This document shows positions 3,658 through 63,709 of a DNA stretch of 64,000 nt, one piece after another. The stretch comes from Escherichia coli (GTDB taxonomy: Bacteria; Pseudomonadota; Gammaproteobacteria; Enterobacterales; Enterobacteriaceae): assembly GCA_032372955.1 (NCBI GenBank), contig GCA_032372955.1_4725.1. One strand, 5' to 3'. Under the pieces are notes generated by a model. It made no database searches. It was not told where the DNA came from and was given only the letters and a program-made list of their open reading frames with translations. How positions within the stretch are numbered: position 1 is the first letter of the stretch; each line of letters opens with the position of its first letter. The translations under genes and the position numbers were made by a program.

Positions 3658-3698
3658 CCTCCTCCTGCCCATGTGGTGGGAGGAGGATGTTTATGCTG
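3658..3698 (+). terminator. stem-loop plus ATGTTTATGCTG (terminator or promoter punctuation)
   Basis: CCTCCTCC(3658-3665)/GGGAGGAGG(3678-3686). Confidence 0.5.
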
Positions 3699-14018: not shown

Positions 14019-14042
14019 TTTCACGGCTATATTACTTACGTG
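14019..14042 (+). promoter_or_regulatory. candidate phage promoter, TATATTAC-containing conserved motif (copy 1)
   Basis: TTTCACGGCTATATTACTTACGTG, 20/20 nt core identical to 43431..43450; about 45 nt upstream of ATG 14084. Confidence 0.45.
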
Positions 14043-15829: not shown

Positions 15830-15839
15830 TCATTAACCA

Positions 15840-15866
15840 CCCTCCCTTCGGGGAGGGTTTATGCTG
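15840..15866 (+). terminator. stem-loop with UUCG tetraloop plus TTTATGCTG
   Basis: CCCTCCC(15840-15846) TTCG GGGAGGG(15851-15857) TTTATGCTG(15858-15866). Confidence 0.55.
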
Positions 15867-21950: not shown

Positions 21951-22265
21951 ATGTCTGAAAAGCATATTGAAATTCTTGATGCCGCTATCGCTTCGAAAGA
22001 TAGCGGTACATTCATCAAAGCGGTATTTGCAGAACAGCGTAATAACCCAGCAACGCTGAATAAAGTTCGTGATGCAATTGCATTCCGTCTTACCAAGTCA
22101 GATATTTCTGATGTGGATAAAACAACGATGCGTAAATTACGCGACGATCTTAATGCATACATCGCTCGTGGTTGTACGGATAAAACCGTTCGTGAGGTTC
22201 TCGATTCTAACGTGAAATACGAATCAGACTTCAAGAAGAACGGTTCAACACCGAAAACAGAATAA
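21951..22265 (+). CDS. hypothetical protein
   Basis: 104 codons, AAGGAAAGAAG RBS. Confidence 0.5.
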   Translation: MSEKHIEILDAAIASKDSGTFIKAVFAEQRNNPATLNKVRDAIAFRLTKSDISDVDKTTMRKLRDDLNAYIARGCTDKTVREVLDSNVKYESDFKKNGSTPKTE

Positions 22266-22274
22266 CAGCATATT

Positions 22275-22315
22275 CCCTCCTCCTTCCCTGATGGGTTGGA
22301 GGAGGGTTATGTTCG
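22275..22315 (+). terminator. stem-loop plus TTATGTTCG
   Basis: CCCTCCTCC(22275-22283)/GGAGGAGGG(22298-22306) with inner CCC-TGAT-GGG. Confidence 0.5.
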
Positions 22316-24557: not shown

Positions 24558-24570
24558 GTTGATTGATGGA

Positions 24571-24599
24571 GCCTCCCGTAATGGGAGGCTTTTATGCTG
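24571..24599 (+). terminator. stem-loop plus TTTTATGCTG
   Basis: GCCTCCC(24571-24577) GTAAT GGGAGGC(24583-24589). Confidence 0.55.
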
Positions 24600-31713: not shown

Positions 31714-32130
31714 ATGGCTGAAGCGACTGTACAAAACCCCCTTTCATTGATTCAGCAAATAAACATACAGATTTCTCCAAAATGCTGTTCTCTTGAACTT
31801 GCATTATCCCACGTCGAAAGCTGGGTAACCTTTCGCCGCACGGTGCATCCGCGTTTCCCGGTAAATATCAGTCCTGTCATCGTGGTGGCATTAGAAAACG
31901 AAGACCTTACTCAAGACATGTGGCAACGCATCCGTGGACGCATACCGCAATACGTAAATGTGATGGGTGTTCTGTTAGTAAGTGACACCGAAGCATTCGA
32001 AAGCCATCCGTTGTGTTACGCCGATGTGGTGGTTACGGATAACCCGATGATGCTTGAACGTATGCGTGCTGTGCTGACTAATCCGGTTCGAACGGAAATA
32101 CTCATCGACATTAAACAGGATGCTTCTTAA
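31714..32130 (+). CDS. hypothetical protein
   Basis: 138 codons. Confidence 0.5.
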   Translation: MAEATVQNPLSLIQQINIQISPKCCSLELALSHVESWVTFRRTVHPRFPVNISPVIVVALENEDLTQDMWQRIRGRIPQYVNVMGVLLVSDTEAFESHPLCYADVVVTDNPMMLERMRAVLTNPVRTEILIDIKQDAS

Positions 32131-32440
32131 CAGTTTGGGTGATAACATGCGTTATTGGAAACTTTCAGCTTATCAAATTGCGTTATTGGGTATCGACACC
32201 AAAGAGAAAGAATTGTTGCACGGTGAACTCGACACCGCTTACCTTTCAGAAAACAACATGGTTGTATGTAAATTTGTTGGGTTAACGACGCGACGTAATA
32301 CGGTACATGAAACCTATGCGTTGAAGGGTAAAGGCATGCAGGAAGTTGCTGCCGTGATTCGTACCGGTATCGTGGTACCGCCAGGTGTAAGTGATAATCT
32401 TGATGAGGTGTTACATGGAACTCGTAAAGCAACCCGTTAA
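32120..32440 (+). CDS. hypothetical protein
   Basis: 106 codons; start uncertain (32120 or 32147). Confidence 0.4.
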   Translation: MLLNSLGDNMRYWKLSAYQIALLGIDTKEKELLHGELDTAYLSENNMVVCKFVGLTTRRNTVHETYALKGKGMQEVAAVIRTGIVVPPGVSDNLDEVLHGTRKATR

Positions 32441-33023: not shown

Positions 33024-33044
33024 CGAAATAAAAGCATATTGCCT

Positions 33045-33083
33045 GTGTCCCTCCCATCATGGGCGGGCACGGGCGTTATGCTG
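33045..33083 (+). terminator. imperfect GC-rich stem-loop plus GTTATGCTG
   Basis: GTCCCTCCC/GGGCGGGCAC imperfect pairing; TTATGCTG at 33076-33083. Confidence 0.4.
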
Positions 33084-33130: not shown

Positions 33131-36181
<3,051 letters not shown>

Positions 36182-36185
36182 GAAA

Positions 36186-36506
36186 ATGGGTAAATGTTGG
36201 ACGGATAAAGAAGATGAAGCGTTGCTGCTTATTCTTAGCACGTCACCAAAAGCGAGTTATAAAGAAGTAGCACGTTGCATGAATCGAACACCATGTTCTA
36301 TTCGCGCACGTTACATCAGGTTGAGGAAACGACGTGGTGATCTACCGCCTCGCGGGGGAGCTTACACACCCGAAGAAAGGGTTAGGATTACCATGCTTGC
36401 AAAGAAACATACCCTAAAAGAAATTGCTGAAATAATGAATCGTAGCGTACACGCCATCCGGTGTTATTGTTTTCGAAACAAGATATCGCTTAAAGTAAGA
36501 CGTTGA
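36186..36506 (+). CDS. tandem-HTH (Myb/SANT-like or sigma-r4-like) protein, paralog 1 of 6
   Basis: WTDKEDEALLLIL..YKEVARCMNRTPCSIRARY and YTPEERVRI..LKEIAEIMNRSVHAIRCY. Confidence 0.55.
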   Translation: MGKCWTDKEDEALLLILSTSPKASYKEVARCMNRTPCSIRARYIRLRKRRGDLPPRGGAYTPEERVRITMLAKKHTLKEIAEIMNRSVHAIRCYCFRNKISLKVRR

Positions 36507-36518
36507 TGGGGTGGCACT

Positions 36519-36986
36519 ATGGTCAAGGACTGGACACCCGAAGAAGACGCGATATTGATTACCCTGTACCGAAACGGTATCCCGATGCAAGAGATTGCGG
36601 CACGGCTTGACCGAACAGAAGGTTCGGTTCAAGGTCGAATTAACCGTAATCGCAAGCGCTGGAAACTCATGTCGCGTCACCGCTATTGTTGTTTCGAAGA
36701 ACGCGTGATGTTAGCCGATTATCTTAAGACGCATAGCGTAAAAGAAGCTGCAGCGATGTTCAACCGTAGCGTGGACGCAATCGCTAAACTCTGCTACCGT
36801 TACGGTATTGTTGCATGCAAAGCGCAACGTCGAGAGATGATTTATTATCGAATACATACGCTTAGAAAAGAGAATAACACCTGGGAGAGAATACGGAATA
36901 TCATCAATAACGAATTTAACACCCATTACACGTTAAGCGGTGTTCATAGCCTCTACTACACTCAAGCATTAAAACGCGTAGAATAG
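36519..36986 (+). CDS. tandem-HTH protein, paralog 2 of 6
   Basis: WTPEEDAILITLY..MQEIAARLDRTEGSVQGR plus second HTH-like repeat. Confidence 0.55.
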   Translation: MVKDWTPEEDAILITLYRNGIPMQEIAARLDRTEGSVQGRINRNRKRWKLMSRHRYCCFEERVMLADYLKTHSVKEAAAMFNRSVDAIAKLCYRYGIVACKAQRREMIYYRIHTLRKENNTWERIRNIINNEFNTHYTLSGVHSLYYTQALKRVE

Positions 36987-36999
36987 GAGAAATCTCGTT

Positions 37000-37503
37000 G
37001 TGAAACCTCCAGTACGACGATGGAATCGTAAGGATGATGAACAGTTGCTGGAATTGTACTATCGTCACCCGAAATTAAAAATCCGTGAAATCGCAGAAAT
37101 CATGGAAACAACGTACGGTGCAATTAAATCGAGGTTGATATACTTAAATGTTGAACGTCGTAAACCGCATAAACGTTTCAGTGTCGATGAGTTGGAATAC
37201 ATCAGAGTGCACTGCAAACACAAAAGTTACAAACAACTCGCACGCGATTTAAACAGGGATCCAAACAGTATTAGAACGATTGCACACCGTCATGGTTTCA
37301 AGCGGTTAAGCGAGGCTGATACTAAGATCTTCATAGCCTTCGTTGATACATTGTTAGAAGAAACACAGGATTGGCACCACATTGCTGAACGGGTTAATGC
37401 GCATTTCGGTATAACACGTACGAAGCAGGCTGTCTATCAGCGTTGGTGGCATCATAGAAAGAAAAGAGGGATACAAGATGGGACGATCTCGACCGTGGCG
37501 TGA
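37000..37503 (+). CDS. tandem-HTH protein, paralog 3 of 6
   Basis: GTG start after AGGAGA RBS; WNRKDDEQLLELY..IREIAEIMETTYGAIKSR; FSVDELEYI..YKQLARDLNRDPNSIRT. Confidence 0.55.
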   Translation: MKPPVRRWNRKDDEQLLELYYRHPKLKIREIAEIMETTYGAIKSRLIYLNVERRKPHKRFSVDELEYIRVHCKHKSYKQLARDLNRDPNSIRTIAHRHGFKRLSEADTKIFIAFVDTLLEETQDWHHIAERVNAHFGITRTKQAVYQRWWHHRKKRGIQDGTISTVA

Positions 37504-37981
37504 CGACGAGCTGAAAGATGTTACGCATCTGTATTTGAACACATCGATGACGATTGATGAAATCGCGCAACGGACAGGGCGAACACGCGCCAGCGTCGAC
37601 GCGCGTCTGGGGCGTTTGGGAATACGTCAACGTCAAAAGCATCGGCCGTATACGGAAGAAGAACGCACATACATCAAGTCGGTAATCAAACAAAAATCGC
37701 TGAGGGAGATTGCGTACGATTTAAACCGTTCGTATGACTCGGTTCGTCAGTTTATACGGCTTAATAGAATTCGTCGTGCGCTAACCAAGCAAGAACGGGA
37801 AGCGATTATCGCGTTTATCGCGGAACGACTTAACGTTACCCAAAATTGGAATGTTATCACATACGACGTTGTTGTTAAATTTGGGATTACAACGAATAAA
37901 CATGCGTTGTATCAACGTTGGTGTTACTACACGAAAAACAAAGGAGCTGCCTATGCGCAAATACCGTCGCTGGACAGATGA
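37478..37981 (+). CDS. tandem-HTH protein, paralog 4 of 6
   Basis: WRDDELKDVTHLY..IDEIAQRTGRTRASVDAR; YTEEERTYI..LREIAYDLNRSYDSVRQ. Confidence 0.55.
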   Translation: MGRSRPWRDDELKDVTHLYLNTSMTIDEIAQRTGRTRASVDARLGRLGIRQRQKHRPYTEEERTYIKSVIKQKSLREIAYDLNRSYDSVRQFIRLNRIRRALTKQEREAIIAFIAERLNVTQNWNVITYDVVVKFGITTNKHALYQRWCYYTKNKGAAYAQIPSLDR

Positions 37982-38483
37982 GGAACTCTCACGCCTCGAG
38001 AATTACGCGGACCAGATACCCAGACCACCGGTTAGTGAGCTGGCTGCTGTATTTCAACGCACAGAAAGCGCGATTAAGAATAAGTTGTATATGTTGTTCC
38101 CTTCGATGAGAACCAATGAGGCATATACAGACAACGAGATTTCCTATATTCGCGACAATATCCACAGATACTCGGTTAAACAACTGTCAAATCATCTTGG
38201 CCGATCGAGAGCGAGTGTCGCCTCCGTAATACGACGACTTAAGCTACGTCGATACGACCCAGATGAATGGTGCAAAATTTCAGACCGTATTACAGCACTT
38301 CGACGTGAAGGAGTTAACTGGAGGGAAGTTGCTCGCATTATCAGCGTCGAGTTCAAACGGGAGTATCGTCACACACATCTTTGTCAGCGTTACTATTATA
38401 ACACACGTGGTAAGAAATGGCAGCAGGTAAAGAATACACAACAACCGAAATCGCATTCATACGCCGAAACGCGGGCGTCATGA
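37953..38483 (+). CDS. tandem-HTH protein, paralog 5 of 6
   Basis: ATG 37953 after AAAGGAG RBS (track 37851 start is upstream in-frame); WTDEELSRLENY..VSELAAVFQRTESAIKNK; YTDNEISYI..VKQLSNHLGRSRASV. Confidence 0.55.
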   Translation: MRKYRRWTDEELSRLENYADQIPRPPVSELAAVFQRTESAIKNKLYMLFPSMRTNEAYTDNEISYIRDNIHRYSVKQLSNHLGRSRASVASVIRRLKLRRYDPDEWCKISDRITALRREGVNWREVARIISVEFKREYRHTHLCQRYYYNTRGKKWQQVKNTQQPKSHSYAETRAS

Positions 38484-38923
38484 CATCGAAAGAAATAGGT
38501 GAAGCGTTAGGACGGAGTCAGAGAGCAATTAGCGCGATTGCTTCAATGCTTAACATCAAACTGAGTCATCGTAATCGGAACGATATTTTATCGCGGGTTG
38601 TCCATTTACGTGATGGCGAGAACCGTCGATGGCGGGAGATCATTACCATCATTCAGGATGAGTTTGATGTCACGTATTCCGAATCGGGACTACAGCGTGG
38701 ATATCAACGCGTGAAGCTCACGACGATAAAGAACACCGATCCTACTCGTCTTCGTATGTTAAATGAAATCCATCGTTATCGGCAATACGATAAACTTCCA
38801 TGGAAAGAGGTGCAAAAACGTATCGAGGTGCGTTACAACAAACATTATCAAATCACAACACTTTGTCAAATGTACCGACGTCATCGTAATCGACTGTTAG
38901 GTAATGAGGGAATTTTAGCATGA
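38417..38923 (+). CDS. tandem-HTH protein, paralog 6 of 6
   Basis: YTTTEIAFI..SKEIGEALGRSQRAISAI; overlaps the previous gene by 67 nt in another frame; alternative start 38480. Confidence 0.5.
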   Translation: MAAGKEYTTTEIAFIRRNAGVMTSKEIGEALGRSQRAISAIASMLNIKLSHRNRNDILSRVVHLRDGENRRWREIITIIQDEFDVTYSESGLQRGYQRVKLTTIKNTDPTRLRMLNEIHRYRQYDKLPWKEVQKRIEVRYNKHYQITTLCQMYRRHRNRLLGNEGILA

Positions 38924-39453
38924 GCATCAAAACAGTAGTTATTAATGAACGGCCGTTCTATTGCGTTATCGCCTCAACGGCCGCCGATCCACACCTTTAC
39001 CCACATAAACGACAGATTCGTGAGCTGTACCGTATTCTCGACGACGTAGAATCAGAGGCATGGGCTACCACGTTTATGTTTGAGAATATCCCCGATTTAA
39101 AACGCGAGTACGATGCCTTAGAACTAGAAAAGCGTTTACCAGACACCGCAAAGTTGGTCGTTATGATCGACGCCATCGCTTCGATGCCGGTAGGCCTCTT
39201 GGAAGTGAATATAGAGAGCCATATGGGTATTCATGACGTTACATCGATTATTGTAAAACCCGAATATCGCGGACGTGGTATCGGCCACGCCTTGATGAAC
39301 GAAGCACGTAACATCGCTTACCAGTGCGGTGGGCATTCTATTGGCCTGGATGTTCGTGCCGATAACGCTGAAGCCCAGGCGTTCTATGAGTCTGAGGGTT
39401 TCACGGTAAGATCGTCCTGGTTAACATCGTCCGTAAAACAGAAAGGAGCTTAA
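38920..39453 (+). CDS. GNAT-family N-acetyltransferase
   Basis: IVKPEYRGRGIGHALMNEA..GLDVRADNAEAQAFYESEGF acetyl-CoA-binding pattern. Confidence 0.65.
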   Translation: MSIKTVVINERPFYCVIASTAADPHLYPHKRQIRELYRILDDVESEAWATTFMFENIPDLKREYDALELEKRLPDTAKLVVMIDAIASMPVGLLEVNIESHMGIHDVTSIIVKPEYRGRGIGHALMNEARNIAYQCGGHSIGLDVRADNAEAQAFYESEGFTVRSSWLTSSVKQKGA

Positions 39454-39883: not shown

Positions 39884-39888
39884 TTGTA

Positions 39889-39916
39889 CCCTCCCGGCAT
39901 GGGAGGGCTTATGCCG
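39889..39916 (+). terminator. stem-loop plus CTTATGCCG
   Basis: CCCTCCC(39889-39895) GGCAT GGGAGGG(39901-39907). Confidence 0.55.
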
Positions 39917-43430: not shown

Positions 43431-43480
43431 TTTTCACGGCTATATTACTTAGGTGAAGCAATGCAGTAATCAGCTTCACC
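43431..43480 (+). promoter_or_regulatory. candidate phage promoter, TATATTAC motif (copy 2), followed by a 5' hairpin
   Basis: TTTTCACGGCTATATTACTTAGGTG then GGTGAAGC(43452-43459)/GCTTCACC(43473-43480). Confidence 0.45.
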
Positions 43481-46732: not shown

Positions 46733-46746
46733 AACAAATCCGTATG

Positions 46747-46780
46747 CCCTTCCTGCGTAATGCAGGAAGGGTTTATGCTG
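46747..46780 (+). terminator. stem-loop plus TTTATGCTG
   Basis: CCCTTCCTGC(46747-46756) GTAAT GCAGGAAGGG(46762-46771) TTTATGCTG(46772-46780). Confidence 0.55.
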
Positions 46781-54372: not shown

Positions 54373-57300
54373 ATGAGTACAGCATATATAACGGTAGTTA
54401 CCGATAAAGGAGCAGAACGTATCACCGCTGCGTTACTTCCCGACGGTGAGAAACTAAAAATCACACACTTTGCCGTTGGTGATGGTAACGGCTCGATCCC
54501 AACCCCGAACGCCAGCCAAACAGCGCTTGTTCACGAAGTTTATCGTGGGGAAGTTTCTAATATCCACGCGGATGGCGATAGCACAACCAGGATTATCGTT
54601 GAGGGTATTATTCCTGCTGGTCAAGGTGGGTTCTGGGTACGTGAGATCGGTCTGTACGATGACCAAGGTGTTCTGATTGCCGTCTGCAGTGCACCAGAAA
54701 GATATAAGCCTACGCCTACCGAAGGCGCAACCAGCGTTCTTAACTGCCAGGTGCATGTCGTTGTTAGTAATACGAGTGCGATACAGCTTAAGGTGTTGGA
54801 TAACGCATTTCTTCCTGATGCAACGACTGCTACACGCGGTTTAACTATTCTAAGTAATGAAACCGATAGCGACGACGAGACAAAATCGGCCACGCCTAAA
54901 GCTGTTAATGCCGTTCGTAAACAATTGCCCGTTGTTGTAACAGATATTCGTGACCGTACCAGCGGACGAGTGGCTCTACCCGGTATGTTCGGTTATGGGG
55001 CAATACTTACCGACGTTAAGAATTTTAGCGGCACCGCTGGAGTAACAGAATTCTTAACATGGGTTAAAGCCGCAACCCCGGGGATTTACCAGGTATCACA
55101 GTCAGCTGGAGACAATAAAATAATTCCAGGAGTGACGTTTACCGGTCTTATTGAAATCAATTACATCAGCTCGTCACGGAACAGTTCTGGCCCACAAAAC
55201 GAAGAGAAGGGAATATTCTTTTTAGGCGTTAACGGTGACTTCTGGTATAACCGTTATCATGCCAGCAGTGGTGGTTCTCTCATCGGGTGGGAAAACCTGA
55301 AAGTCGATGTCGACGCACTTAAACGTCTCATCGCGCTCAAGGCAGATCTTAATAGCCCTGTGTTCACCGGTATCCCGGCAGCGCCCACCGCAGCAGTTAA
55401 CAATAGCAGTCGACAGATTGCCAACACGGAATTTGTGATGCGCGCGATCGCAGCGCTGATCGACTCGTCACCAGCGACGCTAAATACGCTTAATAAGCTG
55501 GCTCGAGCTATAGGAAGTGATCCTAATTTCGCAACGACGGTAACAAATGCGTTAGCTGGGAAGCAGCCCCTTAACGCATTACTGACCGCCTTTTCAGGTT
55601 TAGCAACATCAGCAAACAAATTCCCGTATTTTACCGATACGAATAAGGTTGATTTAGCGACGATCACACCGACAGCACGGACGTTACTACAGCAATCTAG
55701 CATTGAAAGCATGCAAGCATTGTTGCGGTTATCGGCAACACTATTCCAGCGTTTTCGAGGACAGCTCCCCACCGACGCAAATCTGAATACCTACGGTCCG
55801 GTTGAAGCGTCTGTGGGTATTTGGTCTAAACCAGTATCAACGAACGCGGACGTCGCCCACAATTTCCCTGAAGCAAATGCCGCAGGTTACATTGAAGTGC
55901 TCCCAACTGGGCAATTCGGTGGAACGCAACGTTACACTGTATGTACAGGCAATATTTACGTACGTAGTTTAACGGCAGCATGGAACGGCCAGGATGGTCC
56001 ATGGGATGATTGGCTGAAAGTGGGTAATAATGCAGCCACAGCAGCTAAACTTGCTACCGCAAGAACGATAGGTGGCGTCAGCTTCGATGGTTCTGCTAAC
56101 ATCGATCTCCCCGGTGTTAACAAAGCTGGCACCCAGAATACCAGCGGTAACGCTGCTAGTGCAACCAAGCTACAAACTGCACGTAGAATCGGTGGCGTTG
56201 CCTTTGACGGAACAGCGGATATTGCATTACCGGGTGTGAATGCGACAGGTAACCAAAACACCACGGGGAATGCGGCAACCGCCACGAAATTGAAAACCGC
56301 TGTTACGATCGGCGGTGTGAGTTTCGATGGTTCGGCCAGCATCAGTCTACCGGGTGTTAACGCCGCGGGAAACCAAGACACCAGCGGAAACGCAGGAAGC
56401 GCAACCAAAATTCAGACCGCGAGAACCATCGGGGGTGTTTCTTTTGATGGTACTGCGAACATTGATTTACCAGGCGTAAATAAAGCGGGCACGCAAAATA
56501 CCAGCGGCAACGCGGCTACAGCGACAAAGCTACAGACCGCCCGTAAAATCGGTGGTGTTGCGTTCGATGGTACGGCCGATATCGCATTACCAGGCGTTAA
56601 TGCGGTTGGCAATCAGAATACGACGGGTAACGCCGCGACAGCCACGAAATTGAAAACACCGATCACGATCGGCGGAGTTTCTTTTGATGGCTCTGCTAGC
56701 ATTAACCTACCAGGTGTCAACGCGGCAGGTAATCAAAGCACTTCCGGAAACGCTGGTTCAGCAACAAAACTTCAGACGGCGAGAACCATAGGGGGCGTGT
56801 CCTTTGATGGTACTGCCAACATTGATTTACCGGGTGTGAACAAAGCAGGTAATCAGAGTACCTCTGGTAATGCGGCTACTGCCACGAAACTCCAAACAGC
56901 ACGGAAGATTAATGGGGTCGCCTTTGACGGTACAACTGATATTAGCTTTAGCATTAACGTGCTCGCTTCCAAGGGACGGGTCACCGCTTTAGCTAATGCG
57001 ACCCAGGGCAGCAGTACGGGTATTCAGATGTATGAAGCGTACAATAACGGATACCCTACAGCCTACGGTAACATTGTTCATCTTAAAGGTGCTTCATCGG
57101 TTGGTGAAGGTGAAATCCTCATTGGGTGGTCGGGTACCTCGGGCGCGCACGCTCCAGCTTATTTACGTTCGCGTCGGGATGCAACCGATGCGAAATGGTC
57201 GGAATGGGCGCAGATCTACACATCTAAGGATAGTATCCCGGGTGTGAATACAACAGGTAACCAAAACACCACGGGGAATGCGGCAACCGCCACGAGGTTG

Positions 57301-58251
57301 CAAACGGCAAGGACGATTGGTGGTGTCTCATTTAACGGGACGGCAAATATCAACCTGCCTGGGGTAAACACCACCGGTAACCAAGACACGACCGGTAATG
57401 CTGCCACGGCGACAAAACTGAAGACAGCCCGCACCATTGGTGGGGTGTCTTTCGACGGTAGTGCGAACATCAATCTGCCTGGTGTTAACGCCGCGGGAAA
57501 CCAGAATACATCAGGAAACGCAGCAACGGCAACGAAGTTGCAGACCGCGCGCACGATTAACGGTAAACCTTTCGATGGTACAGCTAATATCACGTTAGCA
57601 GCTAAAGATCTTGGTTTAGCCGATTCTAGTGGATATGTCGGGCGTTTACTGAATATGCGGGTTTTCACATCGTCAGGGACGTACACCCCAACACAAGGAA
57701 CAAAACGGATTAGAGTAACGATAACCGGTGGTGGCGGTGGCGGTGGCGGTTGTCAGGCTTATTCCAACAGCGAAACGTTTTTTGGCGCTGGAGGAGGAGC
57801 TGGCGGAACAGTAATTTCGGTTATAACGGTAGCAGCTGCTAGTTATTCTGTTATAATTGGTTCTGGTGGTTCCGGTGGCTCTGGGGCGACGAATGGGAAC
57901 GGGGGTGGAGATAGTAAATTTGCATCCCTGCTAACTGCTCCCGGCGGGCAAGGCGCAGGAAAAACAACTGTCACAAACACTGGCGGTGGCTATGGGGGCG
58001 CACCTACTACCGGGGATATACGCATTCCGGGTGGAGACGGTAGCGATGGACAAGCCGGTACTCTTGCCGCCGGTGGATGTGGGGGTGCGTCATATTGGGG
58101 CGGTGGCGGTCGCGCTGGTGTTGGCACCGCCCATAACGGCCTCGCGCCTGGTTCGGGTGGTGGTGGTGCTTACGATAACTCTTACTCAGGAACCGCTAAG
58201 CCTGGTGGGCGTGGCGCTAATGGGATTTGCATCATCGAGGAGTTTATGTAA
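54373..58251 (+). CDS. long tail fibre protein (P2 gpH-like N-terminus, tandem 37-aa fibre repeats, Gly-rich C-terminal tip)
   Basis: N-terminus [42 protein letters not shown] resembles phage tail-collar fibre domain; 13 repeats of [40 protein letters not shown]; C-terminus rich in GG/GGxGG. Confidence 0.85.
56028..57600 (+). repeat. in-frame tandem repeats (111 nt / 37 aa) inside the tail-fibre gene; boundaries approximate
   Basis: Nine consecutive units then four more after a non-repeat spacer; protein near-identical, DNA mostly diverged at synonymous sites, but an identical ~40-nt stretch (CAGGTAACCAAAACACCACGGGGAATGCGGCAACCGCCACGA) recurs near 56247 and 57252. Confidence 0.8.
57727..57750 (+). 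repeat. (GGT/GGC)8 glycine-codon microsatellite in the fibre tip
   Basis: GGTGGTGGCGGTGGCGGTGGCGGT encodes an 8-Gly run. Confidence 0.6.
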
Positions 58252-63644: not shown

Positions 63645-63659
63645 TAACATAACAGCATA

Positions 63660-63698
63660 AGCCCTCTCCCAACCCGTAAGGGAAGGGAGAGGGCTATG
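63660..63698. terminator. stem-loop with 14-nt loop AACCCGTAAGGGAA between convergent genes; CTATG follows
   Basis: AGCCCTCTCCC(63660-63670)/GGGAGAGGGCT(63685-63695). Confidence 0.55.
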
Positions 63699-63709
63699 TT
63701 ACCTTTACA

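Follow-up and report, generated by a model that had tools for sequence, protein, structure and literature searches.

What is encoded by six small, related genes that stand in a row in the genome of a nucleus-forming jumbo phage, and on which DNA would their products act? The genes, here called g1-g6, lie at positions 36186-38923 on the + strand of a 64,000-nt stretch of DNA (the window) from an Escherichia coli assembly (GCA_032372955.1, contig GCA_032372955.1_4725.1). The window region shares 96.2% DNA identity with Escherichia phage vB_EcoM_Goslar, a nucleus-forming jumbo phage, and g1-g6 are the orthologues of Goslar gp119-gp114. RefSeq names gp119 'SANT/Myb domain-containing protein' and lists gp118-gp114 as hypothetical. 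Our sequence analysis indicates that the six products are tandem Myb/homeodomain-like helix-turn-helix (HTH) proteins, predicted to bind DNA and belonging to a D5-like PHROG, which are already in public records, unannotated as such. Their organisation is unusual in that six paralogues, each translated on its own, keep a fixed order, have long overlaps and carry mosaic alleles. To our knowledge, neither a transcription factor nor a dedicated DNA-binding regulator has been described so far in nucleus-forming jumbo phages. A 2025 review of the biology of these phages names no transcription factor, and we found no paper discussing Goslar gp114-gp119. As Goslar is an established E. coli model with RNA-seq, knockdown and localisation tools, the six genes are directly testable candidates.

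Six diverged paralogues under purifying selection

The preliminary description of this DNA reported six consecutive genes of 106-176 amino acids (aa), and indeed six open reading frames (ORFs) were found on the + strand, given here with the positions of their domains A, B and C:

36186-36506, + strand: g1, gp119 orthologue, 106 aa; A 36192-36320, B 36360-36485, without C
36519-36986, + strand: g2, gp118 orthologue, 155 aa; A 36525-36647, B 36684-36809, C 36819-36980
37000-37503, + strand: g3, gp117 orthologue, 167 aa, GTG start; A 37015-37149, B 37174-37299, C 37309-37470
37478-37981, + strand: g4, gp116 orthologue, 167 aa; A 37490-37621, B 37646-37771, C 37784-37945
37953-38483, + strand: g5, gp115 orthologue, 176 aa; A 37965-38096, B 38121-38246, C 38256-38417
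38417-38923, + strand: g6, gp114 orthologue in its long form, 168 aa; B 38432-38557, C 38567-38725, C' 38738-38905

Genes g3 and g4 overlap by 26 nt and g4 and g5 by 29 nt. The paralogy claimed for the six holds beyond chance by three measures: pairwise identities of 22-37% with BLASTP E-values down to 1e-27, a common match of all six proteins to PHROG 323 (E 8.4e-10 to 1e-19), and a hidden Markov model (HMM) built from the six, which recovered no seventh member in the 64-kb window. Isoelectric points (pI) of 9.7-10.4 mark all six proteins as strongly basic. The ratios of nonsynonymous to synonymous substitution rates (dN/dS) of the array genes were 0.04-0.28 against three relatives, and those of the flanking ligase and GNAT genes were similar. 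The relatives compared throughout were Goslar (L001), L006/L007, L004 (with L003 and L005), L008 and L010. For each gene, the nearest neighbour in the other genomes was the gene at the same position, a 1:1 correspondence across five genomes. Because of these low ratios and this positional orthology, the six are real genes, and our results confirm that they are diverged paralogues under purifying selection.

Two other readings of the row were tried and rejected. That it is one poly-HTH gene broken into pseudogene pieces is ruled out by the same dN/dS values and 1:1 orthology, and is also contradicted by conserved starts, stops and Shine-Dalgarno sites. A fusion of g1 and g2 by stop-codon read-through was rejected as well, as the two genes share a frame here, but not in L004.

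Tandem HTH domains and their relatives

Alignments and structure models gave the layout A-B for g1, A-B-C for g2-g5 and B-C-C' for g6. Domain A is the W-x2-EED...EIA...R(T/S)..S(V/I) repeat. The preliminary description had placed this repeat in every gene, which is correct for g1-g5, while g6 has no A. Domain B, the YT..E...KEIA..LNRS repeat, had been assigned to most of the genes together with a 'W..I...F...YQR.Y' segment; in fact B is present in all of g1-g6, and the segment is a separate third three-helix domain, C, which occurs in g2-g6 and is doubled in g6. Homology was found between A and B (hhalign 97%, E 3e-11) and between C and C' of g6 (96%, E 5e-9), and no sequence relationship between C and either A or B was detectable.

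AlphaFold2 models of g4 and g6, with mean predicted local distance difference test (pLDDT) scores of 82.7 and 80.9, respectively, each show nine helices forming three three-helix bundles connected by basic linkers. Per-domain pLDDT values were 84-93, and the low predicted template modelling (pTM) scores of 0.44-0.47 are attributable to flexible linkage of the domains. As in Myb/SANT domains, the bundles have three helices with an HTH formed by helices 2 and 3, in the classical layout: 'EIA' is located within helix 2, 'R-T/S' marks the turn, and helix 3 opens with 'S-V/I'. The two modelled proteins thus have the common fold and the HTH helices that the preliminary description had anticipated as Myb/SANT-like or sigma region-4-like repeats, and Pfam and fold matches agree with it.

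At the Pfam gathering score, applied per domain, individual domains matched Myb_DNA-bind_6, Myb_DNA-binding, Sigma70_r4_2, HTH_23 and HTH_28, all of which are generic signals of the tri-helical HTH. The Myb matches above threshold were those of g1 domain A (PF13921 and PF00249, 35.7 and 32.6 bits vs thresholds of 22.9 and 24.4) and g3 domain C (Myb_DNA-bind_6, 27.3 bits vs 22.9). The Myb models scored g2, g5 and the remaining domains below threshold and did not match g4 or g6. Protein g2 matched Sigma70_r4_2 with 34.3 bits, and HTH_28 and HTH_23 above their gathering scores. Weak matches to HTH_23, HTH_28, HTH_29, HTH_33 and HTH_38 were also seen, and no match to the GcrA-like PF07750 rose above threshold.

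Fold matches comprised Cbp2, c-Myb, Pax-6, Tc3, GcrA and sigma region 4. For g4, the top Foldseek ranks were taken by 2LVS (Cbp2; probability 0.99, with an E-value of 0.045 that is not significant), c-Myb R1-R3, Reb1, Pax-6 and Tc3; the weakness of the E-values reflects the arbitrary way in which the domains are oriented to one another. Searched against PDB sequences, the family profile matched Cbp2 of Hyperthermus butylicus (2LVS) with E 1.8e-9 over A and B, followed by the Myb repeats of c-Myb, Cdc5 and SNAPc. Domain C had no significant match among PDB sequences or Pfam except for the Myb match of g3; it weakly resembles HTH_33, the second HTH of the DNA-binding regions of IS630/Tc1 transposases, and a short segment of PDB 8YL2 (E 0.01).

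In BFVD, the Goslar paralogues ranked first, followed by multi-HTH phage proteins, either free-standing or fused to endonucleases, among them a T5-like 'D5 protein'. T5 D5 is the founder of PHROG 323 ('transcriptional regulator, D5-like'; E 1.2e-71), and it aligned with the family profile over two HTH repeats (hhalign 88%, E 2.8e-6). The match of the six proteins covers about positions 92-270 of the 319 in the PHROG profile, beginning at 145 in g6.

The region-4-type matches raise the possibility that the six are sigma-like specificity subunits, docking on one of the two multisubunit RNA polymerases of the phage. A sigma-70 factor combines regions 2 and 4, and the array proteins have region-4-type HTHs, of a generic kind, without any region 2 match; the only trace of region 3 was one faint Sigma70_r3 match (E 0.065). 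NCBIfam sigma models scored 16-22 bits against cut-offs of 43-323, and other chimalliviruses with the same polymerases lack the family. We therefore rejected sigma factor identity for the proteins, and consider a sigma-like docking role improbable.

It is more improbable still that the genes are functionless relics of DNA-binding modules from mobile elements, of the homing-endonuclease or the paired-like IS630/Tc1 type. Secondary PHROG matches to the DNA-binding parts of HNH endonucleases, the phage endonucleases among the BFVD matches, the HTH_33 likeness of C and the cassette-like exchange of alleles described below would fit such an origin. On the other hand, the array lacks any nuclease or transposase domain: searches of Pfam, NCBIfam and PADLOC found no HNH, GIY-YIG or LAGLIDADG domain, and the PHROG HNH matches span HTH parts only. 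Purifying selection on all six genes, and the conservation of their order, starts and stops over five genomes, also speak against relics. PADLOC gave chance-level matches only for a defence or anti-defence assignment.

Predicted DNA recognition

Given their fold, their basic charge and their closest relatives, the six proteins very likely bind DNA. The recognition helices are 20-25% identical between paralogues and 53-57% identical between alleles that are 39-50% identical overall, and orthologues keep signatures of their own, such as RCYC in B-H3 of g1 and RDPNS in g3. Because each paralogue has such a signature kept in its orthologues, the six probably read six sites. This fits the different targets suggested in the preliminary description, with six distinct, conserved specificities. 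The structural part of the DNA-binder interpretation given there is borne out by the models, whereas its functional part, a regulator set or host-takeover factors, is still inferential.

Each protein would most likely bind double-stranded DNA as a beads-on-a-string monomer, in which the third helix of each domain would enter successive major grooves and the linkers would track the backbone. Two or three linked HTH domains would in this way read an extended, asymmetric site of perhaps 15-30 bp, in a mode that may be likened to that of Cbp2/Cbp1, c-Myb R2R3, Pax paired domains and Tc3, and six paralogues would address six different sites.

Overlap of g5 and g6 and the start of g6

The last two genes share the longest overlap of the row:

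38417-38483, + strand: dual-coding overlap of g5 and g6, 67 nt, g5 in frame 0 and g6 in the -1 frame

The length of 67 nt follows from choosing the ATG at 38417 as the start of g6 and, with this start, the overlap given in the preliminary description is real. Goslar records begin gp114 at an internal ATG, which gives a protein of 147 aa and an overlap with g5 of 4 nt. Several lines of evidence bear on the choice. In the relative P0016, Leu stands at the position of the internal Met. In L008, g5 is shorter and g6 begins 3 nt past the g5 stop, still encoding the same N-terminal YxTTEIAFIR motif. The N-terminal extension holds helix 1 of the first domain (B) in the AlphaFold2 model, and the overlap is the best-conserved DNA of the array (100% and 92% identity vs a background of 60-90%). 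No X_XXY_YYZ slippery heptamer was found in g5. For these reasons the long start is better supported than the internal ATG, and the public gp114 start truncates an HTH domain. A programmed -1 frameshift from g5 into g6 was also considered, as g6 lies in the -1 frame, and was rejected on the missing heptamer and on L008, where the two genes do not overlap.

Allele replacement among Goslar-like phages

The array stands between a ligase gene and an acetyltransferase gene:

33412-35487, + strand: NAD-dependent DNA ligase, gp121 orthologue, upstream of the array in a common gene block
35474-36181, + strand: gp120-like ORF, 235 aa, between the ligase gene and g1, outside the HTH family
38920-39453, + strand: GNAT acetyltransferase, gp113 orthologue, directly downstream of g6

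The six-gene order between ligase and GNAT was kept in every Goslar-like relative found. Outside this group, matches were nearly absent: tblastn against 50,697 phage records returned Goslar only, word-indexed searches of 5.8 billion proteins returned only Goslar-like orthologues plus one Salmonella SANT/Myb fragment, and a scan of IMG/VR with g6 returned Goslar and one relative. The samples of the relatives all come from E. coli or Salmonella.

Within this fixed order, the genes differ sharply in conservation. Amino-acid identity between the window and L008 is 96% for the ligase, 50% for g1, 90% for g2, 48% for g3, 39% for g4, 47% for g5, 91% for g6 and 95% for the GNAT protein, so that g2 is one of two slow-evolving members and g6 the best conserved. 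DNA similarity breaks off at gene borders (35471/36183, both sides of 36524-36993, and 38440). As the breaks coincide with gene borders, the pattern indicates cassette-like allele replacement of g1 and g3-g5 rather than uniform divergence. Domain content varies too: the g1 genes of L004 (4573-5031) and L008 (6541-7014) encode 152-157 aa including a C domain, which is lost in the window (106 aa), Goslar, L006 and L010.

Two neighbouring genes vary by presence among the same genomes. The gp120-like ORF is a clean presence/absence cassette from the ligase stop to the g1 start, present in the window, Goslar and L006/L007 and absent from L004, L008 and L010; it has no match in Pfam, PHROGs, NCBIfam or PADLOC. 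A Dam-like DNA methyltransferase gene (PF02086) is intact in L004 (426-1250) and L008 (2379-3206), and L003, L005, L006 and L007 have it in split form. The window lacks it and has about 33 nt (32114-32146) in place of about 850 nt, and the gene is not annotated in Goslar.

Exchange of this kind directs attention to the host. During infection by nucleus-forming phages, the host chromosome lies in the cytoplasm, and the six could be cytoplasmic proteins that bind host DNA, either to shut down or redirect transcription or replication in the host or to tag the nucleoid for degradation. The evidence for a DNA-binding fold suits such host takeover equally well, the family is lineage-specific, and cassette exchange of g1 and g3-g5 between near-identical phages is typical of host-interface genes. 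The early timing of Goslar expression is compatible as well, with 175 of 249 genes (about 70%) detected at 5 min by RNA-seq (Armbruster et al., doi 10.1101/2023.09.20.558163). Against it, we found nothing that connects the proteins with host DNA, divergent alleles have kept their recognition helices comparatively similar, the array lies in a replication-gene block, and the D5 relative acts on phage processes. Moreover, with relatives from E. coli and Salmonella samples alone, little host diversity stands behind the allele diversity. We consider host takeover unlikely.

Probable transcription unit and probable role on phage DNA

No sigma-70-like promoter or intrinsic terminator stands out inside the array. 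The nearest candidate signals lie at its two sides:

33040-33083, + strand: GC-rich hairpin and, after it, TTATGCTG; putative terminator/TATG-type promoter bordering the array unit upstream
39888-39913, + strand: GC-rich hairpin (CCCTCCC/GGGAGGG) and, after it, TTATGCCG; putative downstream border of the array unit

The first lies upstream of the gp122 orthologue and the second after the gp112 orthologue. Since these hairpin-TATG elements bracket it, the array seems to sit in one transcription unit with the ligase and GNAT genes. Both belong to an intergenic element, a CCCTCC/GGAGGG hairpin followed by T(T)TATGC(T/C)G, that is also found at 3660-3698, 15838-15866, 24569-24599 and 46746-46780, with further hairpin-TATG elements at 22262-22313 and 63649-63700; TTATGCTG occurs 10 times in the window vs 1.6 expected. 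The motif is similar to the TATG promoter used by the non-virion RNA polymerase of phiKZ, and the element looks like a terminator combined with a TATG-type promoter for the non-virion polymerase of the present phage. In phiKZ, this promoter was shown to be required without being sufficient, and the authors of that work considered a DNA-binding specificity factor of the phage as a possibility (PMC4666361).

Other repeated sequences were seen elsewhere in the window. The 20-nt motif TTTCACGGCTATATTACTTA is identical at 14019-14038 and 43432-43451, in two intergenic gaps on the + strand, and could represent another class of promoter. Coding sequence at 56029-56928 and 57277-57576 contains direct repeats of 120-nt period (seven copies, 61-74% identical to the reference copy), which suggests a protein with tandem 40-residue repeats.

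The GNAT gene follows the array in every relative, with a 4-nt overlap (ATGA) between the g6 stop and its own start. Its product is a generic RimI/SpeG-like protein that scores under all curated cut-offs, and a functional link to the basic HTH proteins is speculation.

Probable co-transcription with the NAD-dependent ligase in a replication-gene block, together with the remote homology to D5, argues for a role in transactions of phage DNA. The proteins would act on the phage genome, in transcription class switching, in shut-off or in replication. We put the probability that their role is lineage-specific regulation of phage transcription or replication at roughly one half.

Another use of the proteins would be as architectural or origin/packaging-site binders, which would coat or mark repeated phage sites for replication, recombination or a chromatin-like structure and would not be classical transcription factors. 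Cbp2/Cbp1, the nearest relative of solved structure, binds to repeats of 25 bp and shapes transcription of the array it covers, the NCBIfam model HTH_Cbp1 aligns weakly over the three repeats of g3, D5 is needed for replication too, and the ligase gene adjoins. However, the 64 kb hold no repeated-site family apart from the hairpin-TATG elements, which resemble transcription signals; six specificities exceed an architectural need; and the NCBIfam Cbp1 equivalog NF040595 gave 20.0 and 16.1 bits vs a cut-off of 140, far from membership. Such a function appears quite unlikely.

Several points weigh against regulation of phage DNA as the role of the six. D5 is a remote homologue and carries an additional domain at its N terminus. 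As the searches place the family in Goslar-like phages only, it cannot, on this distribution, be the general solution for transcription control in nucleus-forming phages. Scans of the window for repeats and intergenic motifs returned no candidate cognate sites, only the hairpin-TATG elements and the 20-nt motif. Domain C, with no significant match to a DNA-binding family besides that of g3, could be a protein-interaction module. Finally, g1 and g3-g5 were swapped for alleles of 39-50% identity in a backbone of about 90% identity. Regulators that depend on fixed cis sites are not usually exchanged in this way, and the swap could be a sign of host-facing or conflict-related roles. This cassette replacement is the one feature that a plain regulator set explains poorly, and it keeps such roles under consideration.

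A bolder form of regulation on phage DNA, which we regard as improbable, would take the array as an exchangeable set of six DNA-specificity factors that programme the promoters or genome regions used by the two phage RNA polymerases or by the replisome in the phage nucleus, with the translationally coupled GNAT protein perhaps tuning DNA binding. If this were true, the set would supply the missing determinant beyond the 'necessary but not sufficient' TATG promoter, the pairing of SANT/Myb proteins with an acetyltransferase would be reminiscent of eukaryotic chromatin regulators, and the 39-50% identical alleles of g1 and g3-g5 would mark co-evolving regulator/site modules or a conflict interface. 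If the six are ordinary regulators, the finding is a useful annotation and not a surprise. In either case, this work corrects the public annotation of gp114, assigns a fold and a family (D5-like, Cbp2/Myb-like) to five 'hypothetical' genes, and documents a conserved six-gene order with cassette-like allele replacement.

Comparison with known systems

Proteins with multiple HTHs are very common in phages, and T5 D5 is the founder of the PHROG into which all six fall. D5 likewise carries three W/F-T-P-(D/E)-E-type repeats, which follow an N-terminal domain, and in both phages the gene lies downstream of an NAD-dependent ligase gene, in T5 directly after ligA/ligB. In contrast, D5 is one alanine-rich gene product of 255 aa with an extra N-terminal domain of about 70 aa, whereas here six genes of 106-176 aa encode proteins with a distinct C-type domain and a pI of about 10, without the N-terminal 70-90 or so residues; none of the six has the full-length D5 architecture of an N-terminal domain and three HTH repeats. 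According to the annotation of the T5 record, D5 binds DNA and is needed for replication and late transcription. The roles of D5, which include early shut-off, derive from record annotation and older genetics.

The closest structural counterparts are archaeal. Cbp2 is a bipartite homeodomain-like protein with a basic linker; it recognises CRISPR repeats of 25 bp, and Cbp1 contains three of the homeodomain-like units (PMC3597662). Like the array proteins, these are small and basic and connect their homeodomain-like HTH repeats, two in Cbp2 and three in Cbp1, through basic linkers, an arrangement that the six indeed have, and for Cbp the site is extended, about 25 bp. They differ in being single-copy genes on archaeal chromosomes that act on CRISPR repeats; no CRISPR-like array was found in a scan of the window for tandem and direct repeats.

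Among eukaryotic and transposon-borne proteins, the Myb/SANT repeats of c-Myb (R1R2R3), SNAPc and Cdc5 share the domain fold, but most domains here fall under the Myb gathering scores, do not keep the regular Trp triad, and are joined by longer and more basic linkers. Pax-6 and the Tc3/IS630 transposases combine two HTH subdomains with a DNA-tracking linker and were recovered as fold hits (6PAX, 1U78 and 1TC3), though the sequence matches are mostly sub-threshold, and the catalytic domain of the transposases is absent here.

The widest circle of relatives comes from an exhaustive profile search of 1.84 billion cluster representatives, of which 14,939 matched at E<=1e-3 and 2,928 at E<=1e-10. 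Among these hits are many proteins of 300-900 aa in which the W-T-x-EED...EIA..LGRS repeat stands 4-10 times in tandem, some fused to helicases or zinc ribbons, and the few source names among them are 'hypothetical' and 'CsgD family regulator'. Judged by these searches, the repeat type appears widespread and largely uncharacterised, and the small A-B-C proteins appear confined to Goslar-like phages. The metagenome poly-HTH proteins are single polypeptides of near-identical repeats, whereas in the Goslar-like phages the HTH domains are divided among six separate genes, with A, B and C diverged from one another.

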